Shown one piece after another: positions 3,108 through 51,289 of a DNA stretch of 64,000 bases. Source of the stretch: a virus; IMG/VR virus record IMGVR_UViG_3300032516_000016, positions 3,632 to 67,631 of that record. One strand, written 5' to 3'. The notes below the pieces were generated by a model. The model was not told where the DNA came from. It saw only the letters and a list, made by a program, of their open reading frames with translations, and did no database searches. The first letter of the stretch is position 1. Each line of letters opens with the position of its first letter. A program made the position numbers and the translations under genes.

Positions 3108-3280
3108 AGTCTTGACCCCATCGCAACCAACTGGTCCAGGGTGAACCCGCGCTTCTCGGCTTCTCGCATTAGTTCCACCAGTCCTCGCGCCAAGCTCTCG
3201 ATTGGCGCGTCTGGTAGGTCGAAATGGAAGCCTTGTGGGCCTTCGAAGGTAATCTCTGGTCTGTGGCAGGGTATTGTCAT
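3104..3280 (-). CDS. small hypothetical protein (58 aa, MTIPCHRPEITF..., not in ORF track)
   Basis: manually translated; fills the gap with ATGA overlaps at both ends. Confidence 0.55.
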   Translation of the reverse strand: MTIPCHRPEITFEGPQGFHFDLPDAPIESLARGLVELMREAEKRGFTLDQLVAMGSRL

Positions 3281-3609
3281 CGGTACATCACTTCCAAGGC
3301 ACGTATATCCGTTGTCGTCGGTGGCTGTTTCCCCCTGCCTGGCATCTTCACGAAGCCATGTCTGGAGCGTACCAGCGTGACCTCACCATCTTCGATCATT
3401 TTGGCAACGATTCGTAGCCCTCTCACTACCACCCCGATCTCATCGACCGGGGTGAGGCGCAAACCCTCGGGACCGATTAGCACTTCGATGAAGTGCTCAC
3501 AGGATTCACATTTTACGATGGATTTTTCTTCTTTCAGGTCTGTGTTGGTGTCCGGGGTTACAACGACGATTTGCTTACCGCAAGTTGGGCATAATGCGTT
3601 TGTTAGCAT
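3277..3609 (-). CDS. Zn-ribbon protein
   Basis: CPTC...CESC. Confidence 0.6.
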   Translation of the reverse strand: MLTNALCPTCGKQIVVVTPDTNTDLKEEKSIVKCESCEHFIEVLIGPEGLRLTPVDEIGVVVRGLRIVAKMIEDGEVTLVRSRHGFVKMPGRGKQPPTTTDIRALEVMYR

Positions 3610-3989
3610 TACACGAACTCCACTATGACATCTTCCTCTAGTATGTGCTTCACTTCGTTCAGCGTGTCCTTGAGTTCTCCTTCATGTACAATCGTCTTCG
3701 TGAGTTTGTACCATGGATCGCCGGTGCCAGGAACGGTGTTTTCCAACTCCTTGTCAAACTTCTCCTTCTTGATGGCGAGCTCTACCCGGATTGTTACGAT
3801 CACGTCGTTTGGGCAGATTTCGAATTTACCATCCTTCTTAATTGTCTCAATTGCCTCCTTCCCCAGTGACTTCACCTCCAGTTTAAAGTCGCCCTTTTGG
3901 GCGACTTTGAGGTGGTGGGTGTATTCGGTGCCATCCTTCTTCTCTTTCTTCGTGTGCCCGAGGGCGGTTACTAATCCTTTCAGTACCAT
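3609..3989 (-). CDS. hypothetical protein
   Basis: in operon, GGAGG RBS upstream. Confidence 0.6.
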   Translation of the reverse strand: MVLKGLVTALGHTKKEKKDGTEYTHHLKVAQKGDFKLEVKSLGKEAIETIKKDGKFEICPNDVIVTIRVELAIKKEKFDKELENTVPGTGDPWYKLTKTIVHEGELKDTLNEVKHILEEDVIVEFV

Positions 3990-3990
3990 G

Positions 3991-4737
3991 TTATTTCCTC
4001 CCGCAGAAGCAGAAATGCCTACCTAGGGTGCAAAGTTCCAGCATGTCATCGTACTCCAGTTGAAGTCGCTTCGCGACTTCTTTTGGATCTTGCATTTTGA
4101 TCTGGGTGAGAACGCGGGTGATGAAGTAGTAGATGCCTAGCGTGGATTGATGGGTGTTGTTGTTGAACTTTTTCCACACATGATCTATCACATCTTCATC
4201 CAGGTCCAGATTCTCTTTCATCAAGGTTAAGGGGGCCACGTCGAACATGGCACGCATTTTATCCAGCTGTTCCGTTCCTTCCGCCCTCCCTTCGCAGCAG
4301 ATGAAGTAACCACCCGGTGCTAATGCCTCCCAAATCGCATCTATTAATGCGATTTGATCGGCCTTTGTTGGCAGGTTGATCAGGCAGCGGGCTGAGATGA
4401 TCATGTCGTAAGTGTTTCGTTTTTCCAGTTCTCTTACATCCATTTGAGCGAAATGCAACTCTTCTTGTTCCAGTTGTTTTGCAAGGGTTATCATCTCCTC
4501 GGATGAATCGATGCCCCATGTCATTGATGCATAATTCGCCCATCTTCTCGTTCTCCGTCCGTTCCCGCATCCTACATCCAGTATGCGGTCAGGTTGGATC
4601 TGGTCAAGCGCACCCTCGATGAAATCATTCTCCAAATCGACCAGGGCATGGTCGGTGTGCGCACCGTACTCCGAGTCTCCGAACTCAAGTGCTTTCTTGT
4701 CCCATGGATTTTCGGTCATCGGCTTACCTTGGCACAT
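3991..4737 (-). CDS. class I SAM-dependent methyltransferase
   Basis: ILDVGCGNG motif I, GIDSS, YDMII, LAPGG. Confidence 0.9.
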   Translation of the reverse strand: MCQGKPMTENPWDKKALEFGDSEYGAHTDHALVDLENDFIEGALDQIQPDRILDVGCGNGRRTRRWANYASMTWGIDSSEEMITLAKQLEQEELHFAQMDVRELEKRNTYDMIISARCLINLPTKADQIALIDAIWEALAPGGYFICCEGRAEGTEQLDKMRAMFDVAPLTLMKENLDLDEDVIDHVWKKFNNNTHQSTLGIYYFITRVLTQIKMQDPKEVAKRLQLEYDDMLELCTLGRHFCFCGRK

Positions 4738-47220: not shown

Positions 47221-47574
47221 ATGGTAAATCATGACGCGACGGCGGTAATAAACGTCATAAATTCTGGTATCGGTAACTTTACCAGCAAGAATAGCGAGTT
47301 GATCACCAAGCTCTTGTCTGATCAGGCGGAGCTTCTGTCGGACATTGACAAGATGCAGAGTCATAACATTAAGGCCGGGTTCCTGCCTGATGATGGTGAT
47401 GATATCAAGAAGTTCGTGGCCGAGATACTTGAAGAGGTTACTGTCAACCTTGGCGAGCTTCAGAATAGCATTGCTGCGTGGGCCGGATCGGTTAACGTTG
47501 TCGTTGATGCGCCTGGCATAATGCGTGTGGACAAGAGTATGGAGCCTGATAAGGAGATGGTAAAGAGTGGTTGA
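47221..47574 (+). CDS. hypothetical protein
   Basis: in operon. Confidence 0.55.
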   Translation: MVNHDATAVINVINSGIGNFTSKNSELITKLLSDQAELLSDIDKMQSHNIKAGFLPDDGDDIKKFVAEILEEVTVNLGELQNSIAAWAGSVNVVVDAPGIMRVDKSMEPDKEMVKSG

Positions 47575-47794
47575 TGAGGTTGTTGATGGGTCTGAGCGCA
47601 ATGAGTTTATATCACTCATTGATAAGCTCGATGGGTTTAAGCGATATACGCTTGTCATTCCGATGGAGCTGTGTTTCATTTTCGTCGTTTTGATCATGGT
47701 TTTGCAGGGTAAGGTTACGGAAGCGTTAGCAGCGGCTTCGGGGGTTTTTGGGGTAATGGTGGGGTACTACTTTGGTGTGCAAAAAAATATGTAA
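47567..47794 (+). CDS. small two-TM membrane protein (holin-like)
   Basis: two hydrophobic helices ending VGYYFG. Confidence 0.55.
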   Translation: MVDEVVDGSERNEFISLIDKLDGFKRYTLVIPMELCFIFVVLIMVLQGKVTEALAAASGVFGVMVGYYFGVQKNM

Positions 47795-47797
47795 GTG

Positions 47798-47833
47798 AGT
47801 TTCCCGCTGCGGCGGGAAACTTATTAGTTTTTT
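47798..47833 (+). terminator. C(UGCG)G hairpin followed by a T-rich tract
   Basis: agtttcccgc-tgcg-gcgggaaact then tattagtttttt. Confidence 0.7.
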
Positions 47834-47873
47834 AGCGTGTTCTTTATATACTTGTAAGTACATGCTATTAGGT

Positions 47874-48020
47874 ATGGAACTACCTACTTTAGAATGTAAG
47901 CGTTGTGGTCATAAATGGCATCCTCGTCGCGATCAGTTGCCTGCTGTTTGTCCTAATCTTAAGTGCAAGTCTTCGTATTGGAATAGAGAGCGTCGTGTTC
48001 CTCGTAAGGTTGTGGTGTGA
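47874..48020 (+). CDS. Zn-ribbon microprotein (48 aa, not in ORF track)
   Basis: MELPTLECKRCGHKWHPRRDQLPAVCPNLKCKSSYW; TTTATATA box about 25 bp upstream. Confidence 0.75.
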   Translation: MELPTLECKRCGHKWHPRRDQLPAVCPNLKCKSSYWNRERRVPRKVVV

Positions 48021-48495
48021 ATATGGTATGTGTTGGTTTTCATCATAGTGAAGAGTCTAAAGCAAAAATATCTGCTTCCAAGCGTGGTGAAAATTGTACT
48101 GCTTCTACTAGGGCTAAGTTGTCTGTTGCTGCTCGTGGTCGATTATGTTCTGATGAAACTCGTGCTAAGATATCAGCGTCTGAAAGTGGTGAAAACCATT
48201 ATAATTATGGTAAGCATAGGTCAGATGATACTAAAGCTAAGTTGTCTGTTGCTAATAAGGGTAAACATATATCTGATGAACATAAGGCCAAGATAGTAGC
48301 CGCGCTTGTTGGAAGACCGTGTTCTGATGAGACCAAAGCTAAAATGGCGTCTACTAAAGTAGGTGATAAAAATCCTAATTATGGTAAACGTTTATCGGAT
48401 GAAACTTGTCATAAGATGTCTGTTGCTCGTACAGGTTATAAAAATCCACAGTGGCGTGGTGGTATTAGTTTTGAACCTTATTGTCCTAAATTTAA
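48017..48495 (+). pseudogene. NUMOD3-repeat homing-endonuclease-like gene, no nuclease domain, with IS insertion at its 3' end
   Basis: repeated S.ET.AK.S motifs, then WRGGISFEPYCPKF, then the IS left end. Confidence 0.6.
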
Positions 48496-48633
48496 CTCTT
48501 GGGATTGCGAAGGGCAAAGCGGGAAGTCCCTATCCTTTAGGGTAGGGATGAAAGCGAAGCCCTTTGCGCATGTTTCTGCTAACGGAAATCTATTTATACT
48601 TAGCAATAGGTTATGTATATTTGGTGATAACCT

Positions 48634-49590
48634 ATGCTAATGGTGGGATCATTGTTTGCGGGGATCGGTGGATTCGAACTTGGATTAGAACGGACCGGGG
48701 GATTCGAAACCAAATGGCAATGTGAAATAGATCCCTTCTGTCAGAAGGTATTAGCAAAGCATTGGCCCAACGTGACGCGATTCGCGGATATCAAAGAGAT
48801 GAATGAGGTTCCTTATGTTGATGTCATTTGCGGGGGATTCCCATGCCAGCCCGTCTCCTGTGCGGGTAAAAGGAAAGGCTCGGAAGACAAAAGATGGCTC
48901 TGGCCGGAATTCTACAGAATCGTTTGCGAAGTTAGGCCAGAATGGGTCTTGGTTGAAAACGTGCCCGGATTGCTTAGTGCAAAAGACGCTGATGGAATCA
49001 AAGGAAGACTTTTTGCCGGAATACTGCGAGACCTGGCCGCAAGCGGGTATGATGCGGAATGGAATATCGTATCGGCGACCAGTGTTGGAGCACCGCACCT
49101 CAGGAGAAGAGTGTTCATCATCGGGCGAAAAATGGACAACGCCCTGCGCGGGGGATACCAGGTCAGTGACAGGAGCACTCAGGCCAAGCAGGATAGCGAC
49201 TGGCAGGAAGACAGATTATTTTGCGCGGCAGGTTCTGATGTGGCCCACACCCAATGTACCGAACGGTGGCCGGAAGGTTCCAGACGATGCGAAATGGCAC
49301 GGCAAGACGACCGCTTACAAGGGCGGGAAGAAGATTCAGGTGGGTTTGAACTCAGCAGTCAAGATGTGGCCAACACCATGCAGCCGAGATTGGAAGAGCG
49401 GAGCCGGATCTTCTCCGAGAGAGGGACACGCACCACCATTAACGGATGTGATTGGTGGGCAGTTGAACCCGGCATGGGTCGAGTGGCTCATGGGGTTCCC
49501 GCCAGGGTGGACCGACTTAGAAGCCTCGGAAACGCCATAGTTCCTCAATGCGCGGAGTTCGTTGGTAGATGTGTGTTGGGGTGCTATTGA
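48634..49590 (+). CDS. dcm: C5 cytosine DNA methyltransferase, alpha-type polypeptide (motifs I-VIII and X)
   Basis: SLFAGIGG, GGFPCQ, ENV, RRRVF, LGNAIVP. Confidence 0.93.
   Translation: MLMVGSLFAGIGGFELGLERTGGFETKWQCEIDPFCQKVLAKHWPNVTRFADIKEMNEVPYVDVICGGFPCQPVSCAGKRKGSEDKRWLWPEFYRIVCEVRPEWVLVENVPGLLSAKDADGIKGRLFAGILRDLAASGYDAEWNIVSATSVGAPHLRRRVFIIGRKMDNALRGGYQVSDRSTQAKQDSDWQEDRLFCAAGSDVAHTQCTERWPEGSRRCEMARQDDRLQGREEDSGGFELSSQDVANTMQPRLEERSRIFSERGTRTTINGCDWWAVEPGMGRVAHGVPARVDRLRSLGNAIVPQCAEFVGRCVLGCY
48815..49540 (+). CDS. nested alternative-frame methyltransferase beta-type polypeptide (WPTP repeats + motif IX)
   Basis: long overlapping ORF with GAGGT RBS; W(T/P)TP x3; LNPAWVEWLMGFP motif IX, which is absent from the main frame. 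Confidence 0.7.
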   Translation: MLMSFAGDSHASPSPVRVKGKARKTKDGSGRNSTESFAKLGQNGSWLKTCPDCLVQKTLMESKEDFLPEYCETWPQAGMMRNGISYRRPVLEHRTSGEECSSSGEKWTTPCAGDTRSVTGALRPSRIATGRKTDYFARQVLMWPTPNVPNGGRKVPDDAKWHGKTTAYKGGKKIQVGLNSAVKMWPTPCSRDWKSGAGSSPREGHAPPLTDVIGGQLNPAWVEWLMGFPPGWTDLEASETP

Positions 49591-50027
49591 TGAAATATAA
49601 ATTGGATCGCGGCGCGCATTCCGTCTATTCACTACATTACCATCTGGTAATTGTGGTGAAGTACAGACGAAAAGCCCTGTATGACGAGGTTATCAGGGAG
49701 CGTCTCAAGAATATTATTTGGGAAATGTCAGACGCTCTTGGTATTGAGATCCTGGCACAAGAACCAGCGGAGGATCACATGCATATCCTCTTCAAATGTG
49801 CTCCCACCACAGACCTAACCAAAGTCGTAAACAGCATCAAGGGTGCGAGTTCGCGCCGGATCAGGCAGGAATTTCCCCAAACCAAGCAATTCCTTTGGGG
49901 CGATTCTTTCTGGTCAGATAGCTACTTCATAGCTTCAACTGGCCAGGTATCTCTCGATGTACTGATGCGGTATGTAGAGGGCCAGATGGAAAAGGTAGAA
50001 CAGGAGAAACGAATCCCTACCCTTTAG
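49590..50027 (+). CDS. tnpA: IS200/IS605 Y1 (HUH) transposase
   Basis: HYHLVIVVKYRR, DHMHIL HUH motif, KGASSR, FWSDSYF, YVEGQ. Confidence 0.95.
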   Translation: MKYKLDRGAHSVYSLHYHLVIVVKYRRKALYDEVIRERLKNIIWEMSDALGIEILAQEPAEDHMHILFKCAPTTDLTKVVNSIKGASSRRIRQEFPQTKQFLWGDSFWSDSYFIASTGQVSLDVLMRYVEGQMEKVEQEKRIPTL

Positions 50028-50077
50028 GGTAGGGTTGTTCAAGTGAGGAGCATTAGCTCCTCATTATGTCAAGTTTT

Positions 50078-50317
50078 TTACTTCTTTCGTTTCTGGGCGA
50101 GGCATCCATTCATGCTGACTACTCTGGCGTTGCCCTTAAGACCCACAGTGGCTGAAGCGCAAGCCCGGGCGTCAGCTCCCATAGTTCCTGCATAAGTTTC
50201 CAGGTGGCGGGGTGTTACACCAGGCGGAAAAGAGCGTCTGGCGAAGTAGATACTACCTTTGCGGGGCGATTTCTTTATAATTATATTTCCCATTTCACTC
50301 AAAGTTGGTGCTGGCAT
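50078..50317 (-). CDS. small basic protein (putative nucleic-acid-binding virion core protein)
   Basis: K/R-rich 79 aa; own TATTTATA box and GGAGG RBS. Confidence 0.55.
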   Translation of the reverse strand: MPAPTLSEMGNIIIKKSPRKGSIYFARRSFPPGVTPRHLETYAGTMGADARACASATVGLKGNARVVSMNGCLAQKRKK

Positions 50318-50386
50318 TTATATCAATCCTCCAAACGTATCATTCACACCAACATATAAATACAGTTTGTCTAAAAAAGTTATCCT

Positions 50387-50414
50387 AGGCGTGATCGCCG
50401 CAGCGATCACGCCT
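50387..50414 (-). terminator. C(UGCG)G hairpin followed by a U tract
   Basis: aggcgtgatcgc-cgca-gcgatcacgcct 2 nt after the stop; minus-strand tttttt follows. Confidence 0.7.
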
Positions 50415-50416
50415 CT

Positions 50417-50764
50417 CTATTCGATCGATTCCATGAATATTGTGCCGAATAAGCTGTCAATTTCAGTTATTATTGTTGTTCCCAACTCAAGTATCTCTTC
50501 GCCGTCCTCGGTCTGTAGGTGTAGCGTTCCGTTGCCGATTATCGTATTTTCAAGTGCATATTTTTTGGTTTTTCGATTGTGCGTTATATACCCTTCAGTT
50601 GACATATTGCCAAGGCGATAGCGTATTTTGTTGCAAAATTTGCGCATTTGCTGATCTGTCACCTTTGTGTTTGCTTCCTTGTGTATCTGCTCCGCGATCT
50701 CCCACGTAGTCTTTGGGTTATCGATCAAGCACCAAAGTATGGCCTTATCCAGTACGTCTTGCAT
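50417..50764 (-). CDS. winged-helix DNA-binding protein
   Basis: KTTWEIAEQI...IRYRLGNM..EGYI. Confidence 0.65.
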   Translation of the reverse strand: MQDVLDKAILWCLIDNPKTTWEIAEQIHKEANTKVTDQQMRKFCNKIRYRLGNMSTEGYITHNRKTKKYALENTIIGNGTLHLQTEDGEEILELGTTIITEIDSLFGTIFMESIE

Positions 50765-50978
50765 TTTTTCTCCGTTTTGCTAGGTGCTCTCTCACCATAT
50801 CAGCGCATTGGGGGTGATCGTGCTCTTCAAGCTTCTCTGCCAGGGCTTCCGCCGATTTGTGCAGTTGCGGGATCACGGCGGCTGGCATTTTCGGGTTGTT
50901 CAGCATCTCGATCATGGCGCGTCTCCGCTTTGACCAGTTGCTGATGTCCACGTCAAATGACCAGTCACGGCAGTTCAC
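50745..50978 (-). CDS. hypothetical protein
   Basis: coupled ORF. Confidence 0.5.
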   Translation of the reverse strand: MNCRDWSFDVDISNWSKRRRAMIEMLNNPKMPAAVIPQLHKSAEALAEKLEEHDHPQCADMVREHLAKRRKNARRTG

Positions 50979-51289
50979 CCTACCTCAGCTCCGTGGTTAG
51001 GTTCTTGTTTGCTGTTCATTATGTCGCGCATTGCGGTCTGCATCTCTGTCTCTTTCTTCATGTACTTGTCGTGGTCAGTTTGCACGTCCCGATGCTTCAC
51101 CTCACCCATGAAGAAGTTGGCTGGAAATGCGAGTTCTTCGCAAAATGTTCCGTCGTCACCTAGCTTTCTGCAAACGAGCACGCCGGTCAGTGGATCGAAT
51201 GCGCGATAGTCACATTCGTAGGATTGGCATGCTTCAAAATCTGTTGCCTCTCCACCGAGCATGTAGTATATTGTGTACTTATGTTGCAT
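50975..51289 (-). CDS. hypothetical protein
   Basis: ATG 51289 overlaps the upstream stop. Confidence 0.5.
   Translation of the reverse strand: MQHKYTIYYMLGGEATDFEACQSYECDYRAFDPLTGVLVCRKLGDDGTFCEELAFPANFFMGEVKHRDVQTDHDKYMKKETEMQTAMRDIMNSKQEPNHGAEVG

Follow-up and report, generated by a model that had tools for sequence, protein, structure and literature searches.

What is a gene for DNA modification doing between the ends of a transposon? The IS200/IS605 insertion sequences (IS) are the textbook minimal transposons, generally treated as free of cargo, and TnpB, from which Cas12 descends, has its home in them. The question arises in a 64,000-nucleotide stretch of viral DNA (hereafter the window) that covers bases 3632-67631 of the IMG/VR virus record IMGVR_UViG_3300032516_000016, a 67,631-bp genome with direct terminal repeats that is rated complete. 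Within it a unit bounded by twin hairpins holds a DNA cytosine methyltransferase gene, dcm, and a transposase gene, tnpA (see the table). We consider it about 85% probable that this unit, 48496-50042, is a complete IS200/IS605-family single-strand "peel-and-paste" element that has a C5 methyltransferase as cargo and has no tnpB. A preliminary description of the locus had proposed an intact element with a methyltransferase in place of TnpB, and its coordinates for the TTAA, the AAGT, the hairpins, the GAAT, the TCAA and the gene overlap were all confirmed on the sequence. Its view of the element as intact agrees with the presence of both ends, of the TnpA catalytic motifs, of the TTAA target and of the TCAA site. 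The phrase "in place of TnpB" stands only in part: the methylase does lie inside the ends and there is no TnpB, but the cargo is situated between the leader and tnpA, that is, upstream of tnpA, and the position of tnpB is downstream.

Features of the element and of its insertion site (positions are those of the window; LE, left end; RE, right end)
Feature	Coordinates	Strand	Description
IS200/IS605 element, whole unit	48496-50042	+	1,547 bp; twin subterminal hairpins, dcm and tnpA
TTAA target and left cleavage site	48492-48495	+	stays in the left flank, outside the element
LE plus leader	48496-48633	+	alignable with the canonical LE and tnpA leader as far as the start codon
LE outer stem	48506-48515 with 48559-48570	+	encloses the left hairpin
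Guide-position AAGT	48524-48527	+	5' of the left hairpin
Left hairpin	48528-48547	+	arms 48528-48535 and 48540-48547, loop TTTA, one T.G position
TATA-like TATTTATA	48592-48599	+	ahead of the dcm ATG; conserved in leaders of related elements
GGTGAT	48623-48628	+	ahead of the dcm ATG; conserved in leaders of related elements
dcm	48634-49590	+	orphan C5 DNA cytosine methyltransferase, phage-type; 957 bp, 318 aa; PF00145 E 6.7e-49
Open +1 frame within dcm	48803-49540	+	WPTP repeats and motif-IX-like LNPxWVEWLMGFPxGWT
tnpA	49590-50027	+	Y1/HUH single-strand transposase, 145 aa; PF01797 E 1.1e-41, profile positions 1-121 of 121
RE	50011-50042	+	guide, hairpin and cleavage site
RE guide GAAT	50011-50014	+	5' of the right hairpin
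Right hairpin	50015-50034	+	arms 50015-50022 and 50027-50034, perfect 8-bp stem, loop TTTA
Right cleavage site TCAA	50039-50042	+	final tetranucleotide of the element
NUMOD3-repeat gene hit by the insertion	48017-48495	+	PF07460 E 5.1e-37
Right flank	50045-50079	+	7-bp hairpin (50045-50051 with 50056-50062), T6 run (50074-50079)

The two ends agree in 92% of a 24-nt direct repeat, with the hairpins in direct orientation and no terminal inverted repeats. Folded as single-stranded DNA, the region around the left hairpin reaches -14.1 kcal/mol (z -2.2 against shuffled sequences) and that around the right hairpin -8.7 kcal/mol (z -2.6). There is no target duplication, the right flank (GTGAG...) being without a repeat of TTAA. 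The interior is tightly packed: the TGA of dcm (49588-49590) and the ATG of tnpA (49590-49592) share one base in the string TGATG, and the TAG of tnpA (50025-50027) falls partly in the loop and partly in the stem of the right hairpin. The interval from tnpA to the RE leaves no room for tnpB, so that the tnpB within the ends by which the IS605 group is recognized is lacking.

The transposase has what its family requires. Among solved structures it matches ISDra2 TnpA (2xm3, E 2.1e-24) and IS608 TnpA (2a6m, E 4.6e-22); its H-M-H aligns with the H-V-H of ISDra2 TnpA and the Tyr of its S-Y-F with that of S-Y-C in the same protein, residues that we take to be catalytic in ISDra2. This tnpA is the sole PF01797 match across the virus. 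A search of the one virus record for TnpB (PF07282) found none, while the control search was positive in eight of 14 genomes, and the interval 48000-50500 has no Rfam match.

The DNA on either side of the unit still fits together. The element has entered 3' of a TTAA within the final codons of a NUMOD3-repeat gene, whose open reading frame (ORF) now extends to 48640, with its last residue altered and 48 residues gained from the LE. When 48496-50042 is left out, this frame stops two codons on, at the TGA of 50044-50046, and in an empty site the hairpin and T6 run of the right flank would come directly behind that stop.

Relatives of the element were gathered by a TnpA protein scan, a hairpin pattern and a left-end pattern, the last of which matched seven loci on viral contigs, 67 on metagenome contigs and 34 on genome contigs. 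TTAA stands at the expected left boundary in 101 of the 106 LE-bearing loci with enough flank (in 99 of them as TTAAC), and it precedes all six elements in one alignment and all eight in another. The two ends and the TTAA boundary are found together in more than 100 other loci, which puts the pattern in the window far beyond chance. Two copies, L007 and L008, are identical and lie on one viral contig, where their sequences cease to agree immediately ahead of TTAAC and immediately behind TTCAC. Between relatives, compensatory changes are seen in the hairpin stems and in the LE outer stem alike; the outer stem has changed on its two sides, from AAGGGC/GCCCTT in the elements with cargo to AAGGAC/GTCCTT in the canonical ones or the reverse, and the T.G position of the left hairpin is present in all copies.

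The ends also obey the pairing rule known from IS608, by which a tetranucleotide 5' of each hairpin guides cleavage and which had been invoked for this locus from the outset. Both predicted pairs are there, GAAT with TCAA and AAGT with TTAA, and the right-hand pair covaries among relatives, being GAAT/TCAA in the window and L004 and GAAG/TCAC in L006, L007, L008 and L009. The AAGT/TTAA pair is kept at every aligned left end. The Fig. 1 legend of the IS608 study gives the pairs as GR GAAT with CR TCAA and GL AAAG with CL TTAC (PMC5934647); the covariation of guide and cleavage site at the RE agrees with the rule as stated there and so supports the ends as we have drawn them.

The normal form in this group is LE-tnpA-tnpB-RE, with a TnpB of 395 aa that matches PF01385, PF07282 and PF12323. 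When 79 occurrences of the LE were examined (including four duplicates of the same contigs), tnpA directly followed the leader in 28 (26 intact or cut by the contig end, two remnants) and tnpB did so in 19; 17 lay on contigs too short to classify, and five had no match in 1 kb or more. Cargo followed by tnpA was found in five, namely the window, L004, L094, L119 and L124, and one further locus, L125, is probably of the cargo type, its contig stopping before tnpA. The 34 genome-contig loci divide into 11 with tnpA behind the leader, 16 with tnpB there, four that are too short and three with other content, and none of the 34 has a cargo-type element. Thirty-one of them belong to Methanothrix, Methanocrinis or other Methanotrichaceae, which points to that archaeal family as the probable home of the element.

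TnpA of the cargo-type elements is 91-95% identical to that of the window, and that of full-length canonical elements 78-83%. A tree of 25 TnpA rows groups the 20 canonical ones in one clade (support 100/99) and puts the four full-length cargo rows outside it, together with the distant L010; whether the cargo rows are monophyletic depends on the root. By these comparisons the cargo lineage, a small one, is evidently derived from, or sister to, the LE-tnpA-tnpB-RE elements of these archaea; it has lost tnpB together with most of the 3' region that runs from tnpB to the RE in canonical relatives, and has one or two passenger genes between leader and tnpA.

Other derivatives of the group came to light as well. 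Two loci of one Methanothrix genome, L159 and L161, are near-identical for at least 260 nt behind the LE, with one differing letter seen; the content there includes neither tnpA nor tnpB, and that of L105 is related to it. These three may be non-autonomous derivatives of the same IS. A tnpA-tnpB element of the Methanotrichaceae type was also met on a 2.6-kb contig of a Dehalococcoidia metagenome-assembled genome (L147), and its TnpA is identical to five metagenome copies over 135 aligned residues; its placement is probably a binning error rather than a transfer.

Where the cargo lies is best seen by comparing the sisters. Alignment of the LE and leader with the canonical ones continues as far as the start codon, so that dcm takes up the starting point that is normally that of tnpA. 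A near-identical leader ending in GGTGATAACCT is shared by the window, L119 and L124, each of which has a different cargo behind it; in the window and L124 the cargo opens at the start-codon position of the leader, in L119 it opens three nucleotides further on, and homology among the three picks up again at the start of tnpA. A second variant of the leader is common to L004, L094 and L125. The stop of the cargo overlaps the start of tnpA, as TGATG in the window and as ATGA in L004, L094 and L119. The cargo of L119 is again a C5 methylase, of 208 aa (PF00145 34.5 bits at a cutoff of 22; phrog_363 E 9.8e-31), which can be aligned with that of the window in the first ~90 residues alone (27% identity). 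L094 carries ORFs of 107 aa and 220 aa, L004 an 85% identical copy of the 220-aa ORF fused to the first 17 codons of the 107-aa ORF, and L124 ORFs of 128 aa and 65 aa. The cargo ORFs of L004/L094, L124 and L125 had no match in Pfam, PHROGs or PADLOC and no usable match in Atlas; the 220-aa protein of L094 has 15 relatives in the protein collection, none of them informatively named. The flanks of the cargo loci share with those of the window only short summed high-scoring segment pairs, and nothing convincing.

These sisters suggest a wider picture, which we put forward tentatively and as somewhat short of an even chance: viruses of Methanotrichaceae may host a TnpB-less cassette platform of the IS200 type, in which the LE promoter and ribosome-binding site, tnpA and RE are constant and the genes between, which begin no more than 3 nt from the start-codon position of the leader, are interchangeable, two unrelated DNA methylases and several unknown proteins being among them. 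Cargo beneficial to the carrier would then replace retention driven by a nuclease, and the platform would shuttle genes for DNA modification, and perhaps for counter-defence, between viruses.

The cargo itself proved less simple than its annotation. Dcm is the only PF00145 match of the virus, and that match is limited to residues 3-187; it also matches phrog_363 (E 1.7e-80) and M.HhaI (10mh, E 4.9e-19, residues 6-168), and its full-length relatives are 56-62% identical. Motifs I, IV, VI, VIII and X can be read in the 318-aa frame as F-A-G-I-G-G, G-F-P-C-Q, E-N-V, R-R-R-V-F and G-N-A-I-V-P, respectively. Within the gene, however, a +1 frame is open, and this frame matches phrog_1008 ("DNA methyltransferase", E 4.5e-27) and 3327 database proteins, of which nearly all among the 120 listed are without a Pfam domain. 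Its motif-IX-like sequence occurs in the +1 frame of 66 of 82 viral relatives and in none of the 82 in each other frame. The family of two-frame loci comprises the window (48803-49590), L002, L003 and L168-L250.

The two frames leave different traces in the substitutions. We compared 18 pairs of related genes, some sharing loci, by position 1, 2 and 3 of the annotated codons. The counts are 410, 258 and 823 in the N-terminal part, 293, 112 and 97 in the middle, 11, 3 and 3 in the WW..RL segment and 1, 2 and 13 from motif X to the end, the last two sets being small. From these counts it follows that the wobble position moves to the +1 frame in the middle of the gene and returns before motif X. 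It is thus probably in the +1 frame that selection acts on the middle and target-recognition part of dcm. The structure models agree with this only in part: in the annotated frame the predicted local distance difference test (pLDDT) score is >85 for residues 1-170, ~40 for residues 171-297 and 93-97 for residues 301-318, and the model of the +1 frame is confident only locally (89-93 for residues 161-180, 70-75 for residues 201-240). The +1-frame model had no Foldseek match in the PDB at E <= 0.001 and a single row, with Z 2.1, in the wide VIA fold search, and against PDB sequences this part gave only a chance match (E 1.3). Production of the enzyme as two polypeptides or by shifted translation would both be compatible with these data. 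That dcm is a pseudogene with a double frameshift was considered and rejected: thousands of relatives align collinearly with the 318-aa frame, and the whole family shows the two-frame pattern.

Two side observations concern the same region. A stretch of ~100 nt within 49396-49526 is the sole part conserved at the DNA level (75-84%) with methylase genes of Mycobacterium, Microcystis and Acinetobacter phages, and in four metagenome runs (X1-X4, searched as Logan contigs, which drop rare variants) the word depth of 49396-49526 is 63-258, against ~10 or less for most of its surroundings; conservation and depth together fit a segment constrained in two frames. Three methylase relatives of ~500 aa (P0003, P0012 and P0028) have an insertion of ~190 residues placed exactly inside the conserved WW..EP..G / GVP.RVDRL segment, and this may be an intein or some other mobile insert in the two-frame region.

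Does the unit move, and does it move with its cargo? Between L094 and L004 homology extends only from LE to RE (1154-2741 and 3139-4453, respectively) and the flanks are unrelated; both lie behind TTTAA and both end in TTCAA. That the homology of this pair stops at the two ends and that the sites are unrelated indicates that the cargo layout moves as a unit. For the copy in the window we infer mobility, on evidence that is thin. A 363-nt contig of X3 is letter-perfect over 48491-48654, i.e. the LE and the first 21 nt of dcm, behind 199 unlike letters, and a 467-nt contig of X2 ends exactly at 50042, which hints at other contexts of the same element. Several facts weigh on the other side. The two hint contigs have a depth of only 4-5x and their unlike parts were not read; the element is present once in the virus; and the joint 48495/50043 of an empty site was absent from the contigs of the four runs, from which rare variants are dropped. 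Nor was an empty site found through relatives of the NUMOD3 gene in IMG/VR, the 30 loci (28-56% identical over their best segments, 41% in the best-scoring match) being too distant. No second full copy turned up in the protein collection of 5.8 billion clusters, where the nearest Dcm is 61% identical, and no close copy in IMG/VR, where Dcm finds three distant loci (the best 35-39% identical) and the RE pattern of the cargo lineage occurs on the L004 contig only. As to the cargo, the middle third of dcm is predicted to be disordered in the annotated frame and seems to evolve as if read in +1, and with this two-frame pattern an active enzyme should not be assumed. Translational coupling, promoter use and an anti-restriction benefit are likewise steps that we infer.

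Much of this would suit a fixed relic, an element that inserted once, lost tnpB and became immobile, its methylase and tnpA persisting as ordinary viral genes or its tnpA decaying. The single copy in the virus and the lack of an empty-site joint or of a second dcm element are as such a history would leave them, and coupling to the cargo may hold TnpA very low. Yet TnpA is full length, 93-96% identical to the TnpAs of its sisters and intact in its HUH motif and Tyr; the hairpins and the guide and cleavage pairs are kept at both ends; the sister cargo form stands at two unrelated sites; and the X3 contig has an identical LE and dcm start behind different DNA. We therefore regard the relic as unlikely, though it is the rival that we take most seriously. 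A more doubtful proposal still is that the methylase benefits the transposon and is not anti-restriction cargo for the virus; it might be a retention or regulation module, with methylation marking, for instance, the donor site or the transposon's ends, or it might supply the modification in an addiction pair whose other member is a host nuclease. Dcm indeed comes first in the operon of the element and is coupled to tnpA, and C5 methylases make up two of the five or six types of cargo; but sisters with near-identical TnpA and ends carry unrelated ORFs that are not methylases, so this transposase has no need of one, and at none of the 83 viral loci with relatives of the methylase does a Y1 tnpA lie within 2.5 kb. 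The preliminary description had named a case as fatal to its proposal, dcm relatives that lack the left hairpin but occupy this locus; none was met, in a comparison for which no close relative of the virus was available. It is hardly credible, finally, that the assembly stitched a repeated IS and a conserved methylase segment into the contig of the virus. The word depth of 49396-49526 is what might raise such a suspicion, and the contigs of X1 break there and overlap by only 27 nt. Those same contigs, however, cross both junctions with the virus, that of the LE (47300-49493) and that of the RE (49467-51200), with no mismatch and at depths of 9.9 and 10.8; contigs of X2 and X3 bridge the high-depth stretch (49390-49504 and 49478-49683); the dcm ORF is continuous and collinear with its full-length relatives; and the flanks, once joined, restore a single ORF end together with a hairpin.

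If the unit is indeed a complete transposon with cargo, it might work as follows. A promoter in the LE leader (the TATA-like box with GGTGAT) would drive one transcript of cargo and tnpA, starting at the TATA-like box, and TnpA would be made by termination and reinitiation at TGATG, which would tie the output of transposase to translation of the cargo. TnpA dimers would bind both top-strand hairpins, pairing of AAGT with TTAA and of GAAT with TCAA would set the positions of the cuts, and the element would leave as a single-strand circle that re-enters 3' of another TTAA. Top-strand action, the placement of the cuts and the circle are modelled on the biology of IS608 and ISDra2, as set out in the mechanistic passages of PMC5934647. 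The methylase would modify the DNA of the carrier replicon and shield it against host restriction, and such shielding would give the virus a reason to keep the element without retention mediated by TnpB.

The carrier is itself little characterized: among ten large ORFs Pfam recognizes only helicase, prim-pol, PEGA and SNase domains. Its host is most likely a member of the Methanotrichaceae (Methanothrix/Methanocrinis), because 31 of the 34 genome contigs with this LE are from that family. Beside the element, the NUMOD3-repeat ORF (48017-48640) has no recognisable nuclease domain within it, and a 52-aa zinc-ribbon-like ORF (47862-48020) adjoins the start of the NUMOD3 gene.

Acetoclastic methanogens are globally important and their viruses barely known, and the element offers a possible route by which methylases and small genes of unknown kind could pass among such viruses. 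More generally, it would be a natural example in which the nuclease is gone, a gene useful to the carrier is installed in the transposase operon and the slot is reused by sisters; in short, a family normally free of cargo can ferry genes. Single-strand transposons of the cut-and-paste kind would then have two contrasting ways to persist, homing by TnpB and benefit to the carrier. The frame is compact and could double as a small vehicle for single-strand DNA insertion in archaea.

There are precedents for parts of this arrangement. Cargo in IS200/IS605 elements has been presented as previously unknown and seen on rare occasions (PNAS 2023, PMC10691335), and the genes listed there alongside TnpB are helicase, WhiA-like and helix-turn-helix genes; the passages of that paper that deal with cargo mention neither a methylase nor a form without TnpB. 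In a 2026 preprint Arc is regarded as a protein accessory to IS605 elements. We found no description in the literature of an IS200/IS605 element that carries a methylase, or carries cargo without TnpB, with ISfinder/TnPedia, subscription papers and supplements outside the scope of the search. Solitary M genes flanked by IS are on record, in a passage of PMC2853133 that cites a paper on the IS1595 family; such flanking is a different arrangement from cargo that lies inside the ends.

The closest mechanistic parallels are IS608 of Helicobacter pylori and ISDra2 of Deinococcus radiodurans, which like the window's element have a Y1/HUH TnpA, subterminal hairpins and no terminal inverted repeats, insert 3' of a fixed tetranucleotide and place a guide tetranucleotide 5' of each hairpin. 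The element differs from both in using TTAA with AAGT rather than TTAC with AAAG, in having no tnpB, in having most likely an archaeal virus as its host and in the passenger gene between leader and tnpA. With the tnpA-only IS200 group it shares a tnpA without an RNA-guided nuclease between hairpin ends; unlike that group it has tnpA preceded, in one operon, by a passenger gene of 957 bp, and its nearest relatives by TnpA and LE are tnpA-tnpB elements. Passenger genes characterize the insertion sequences called transporter IS (tIS), which to our knowledge have so far been mostly of DDE families. The element agrees with these in that dcm lies between LE and tnpA and that the homology of L094 and L004 comprises only cargo and ends. 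As defined in the relevant passage of PMC9330008, the passenger gene of a tIS lies within the IS ends, as it does here, and is lost only by events other than transposition. The right-hand pair of IS608 given in the figure legend cited above, GAAT/TCAA, is letter for letter that of the window (PMC5934647). The canonical IS605-type elements of Methanotrichaceae (L006, L007 and L149 among others), finally, share the TTAA target and the type of hairpin, with an LE 77-92% identical over aligned stretches and a TnpA 78-83% identical; they differ from the window's element in having tnpB, a TCAC end with a GAAG guide and no cargo.

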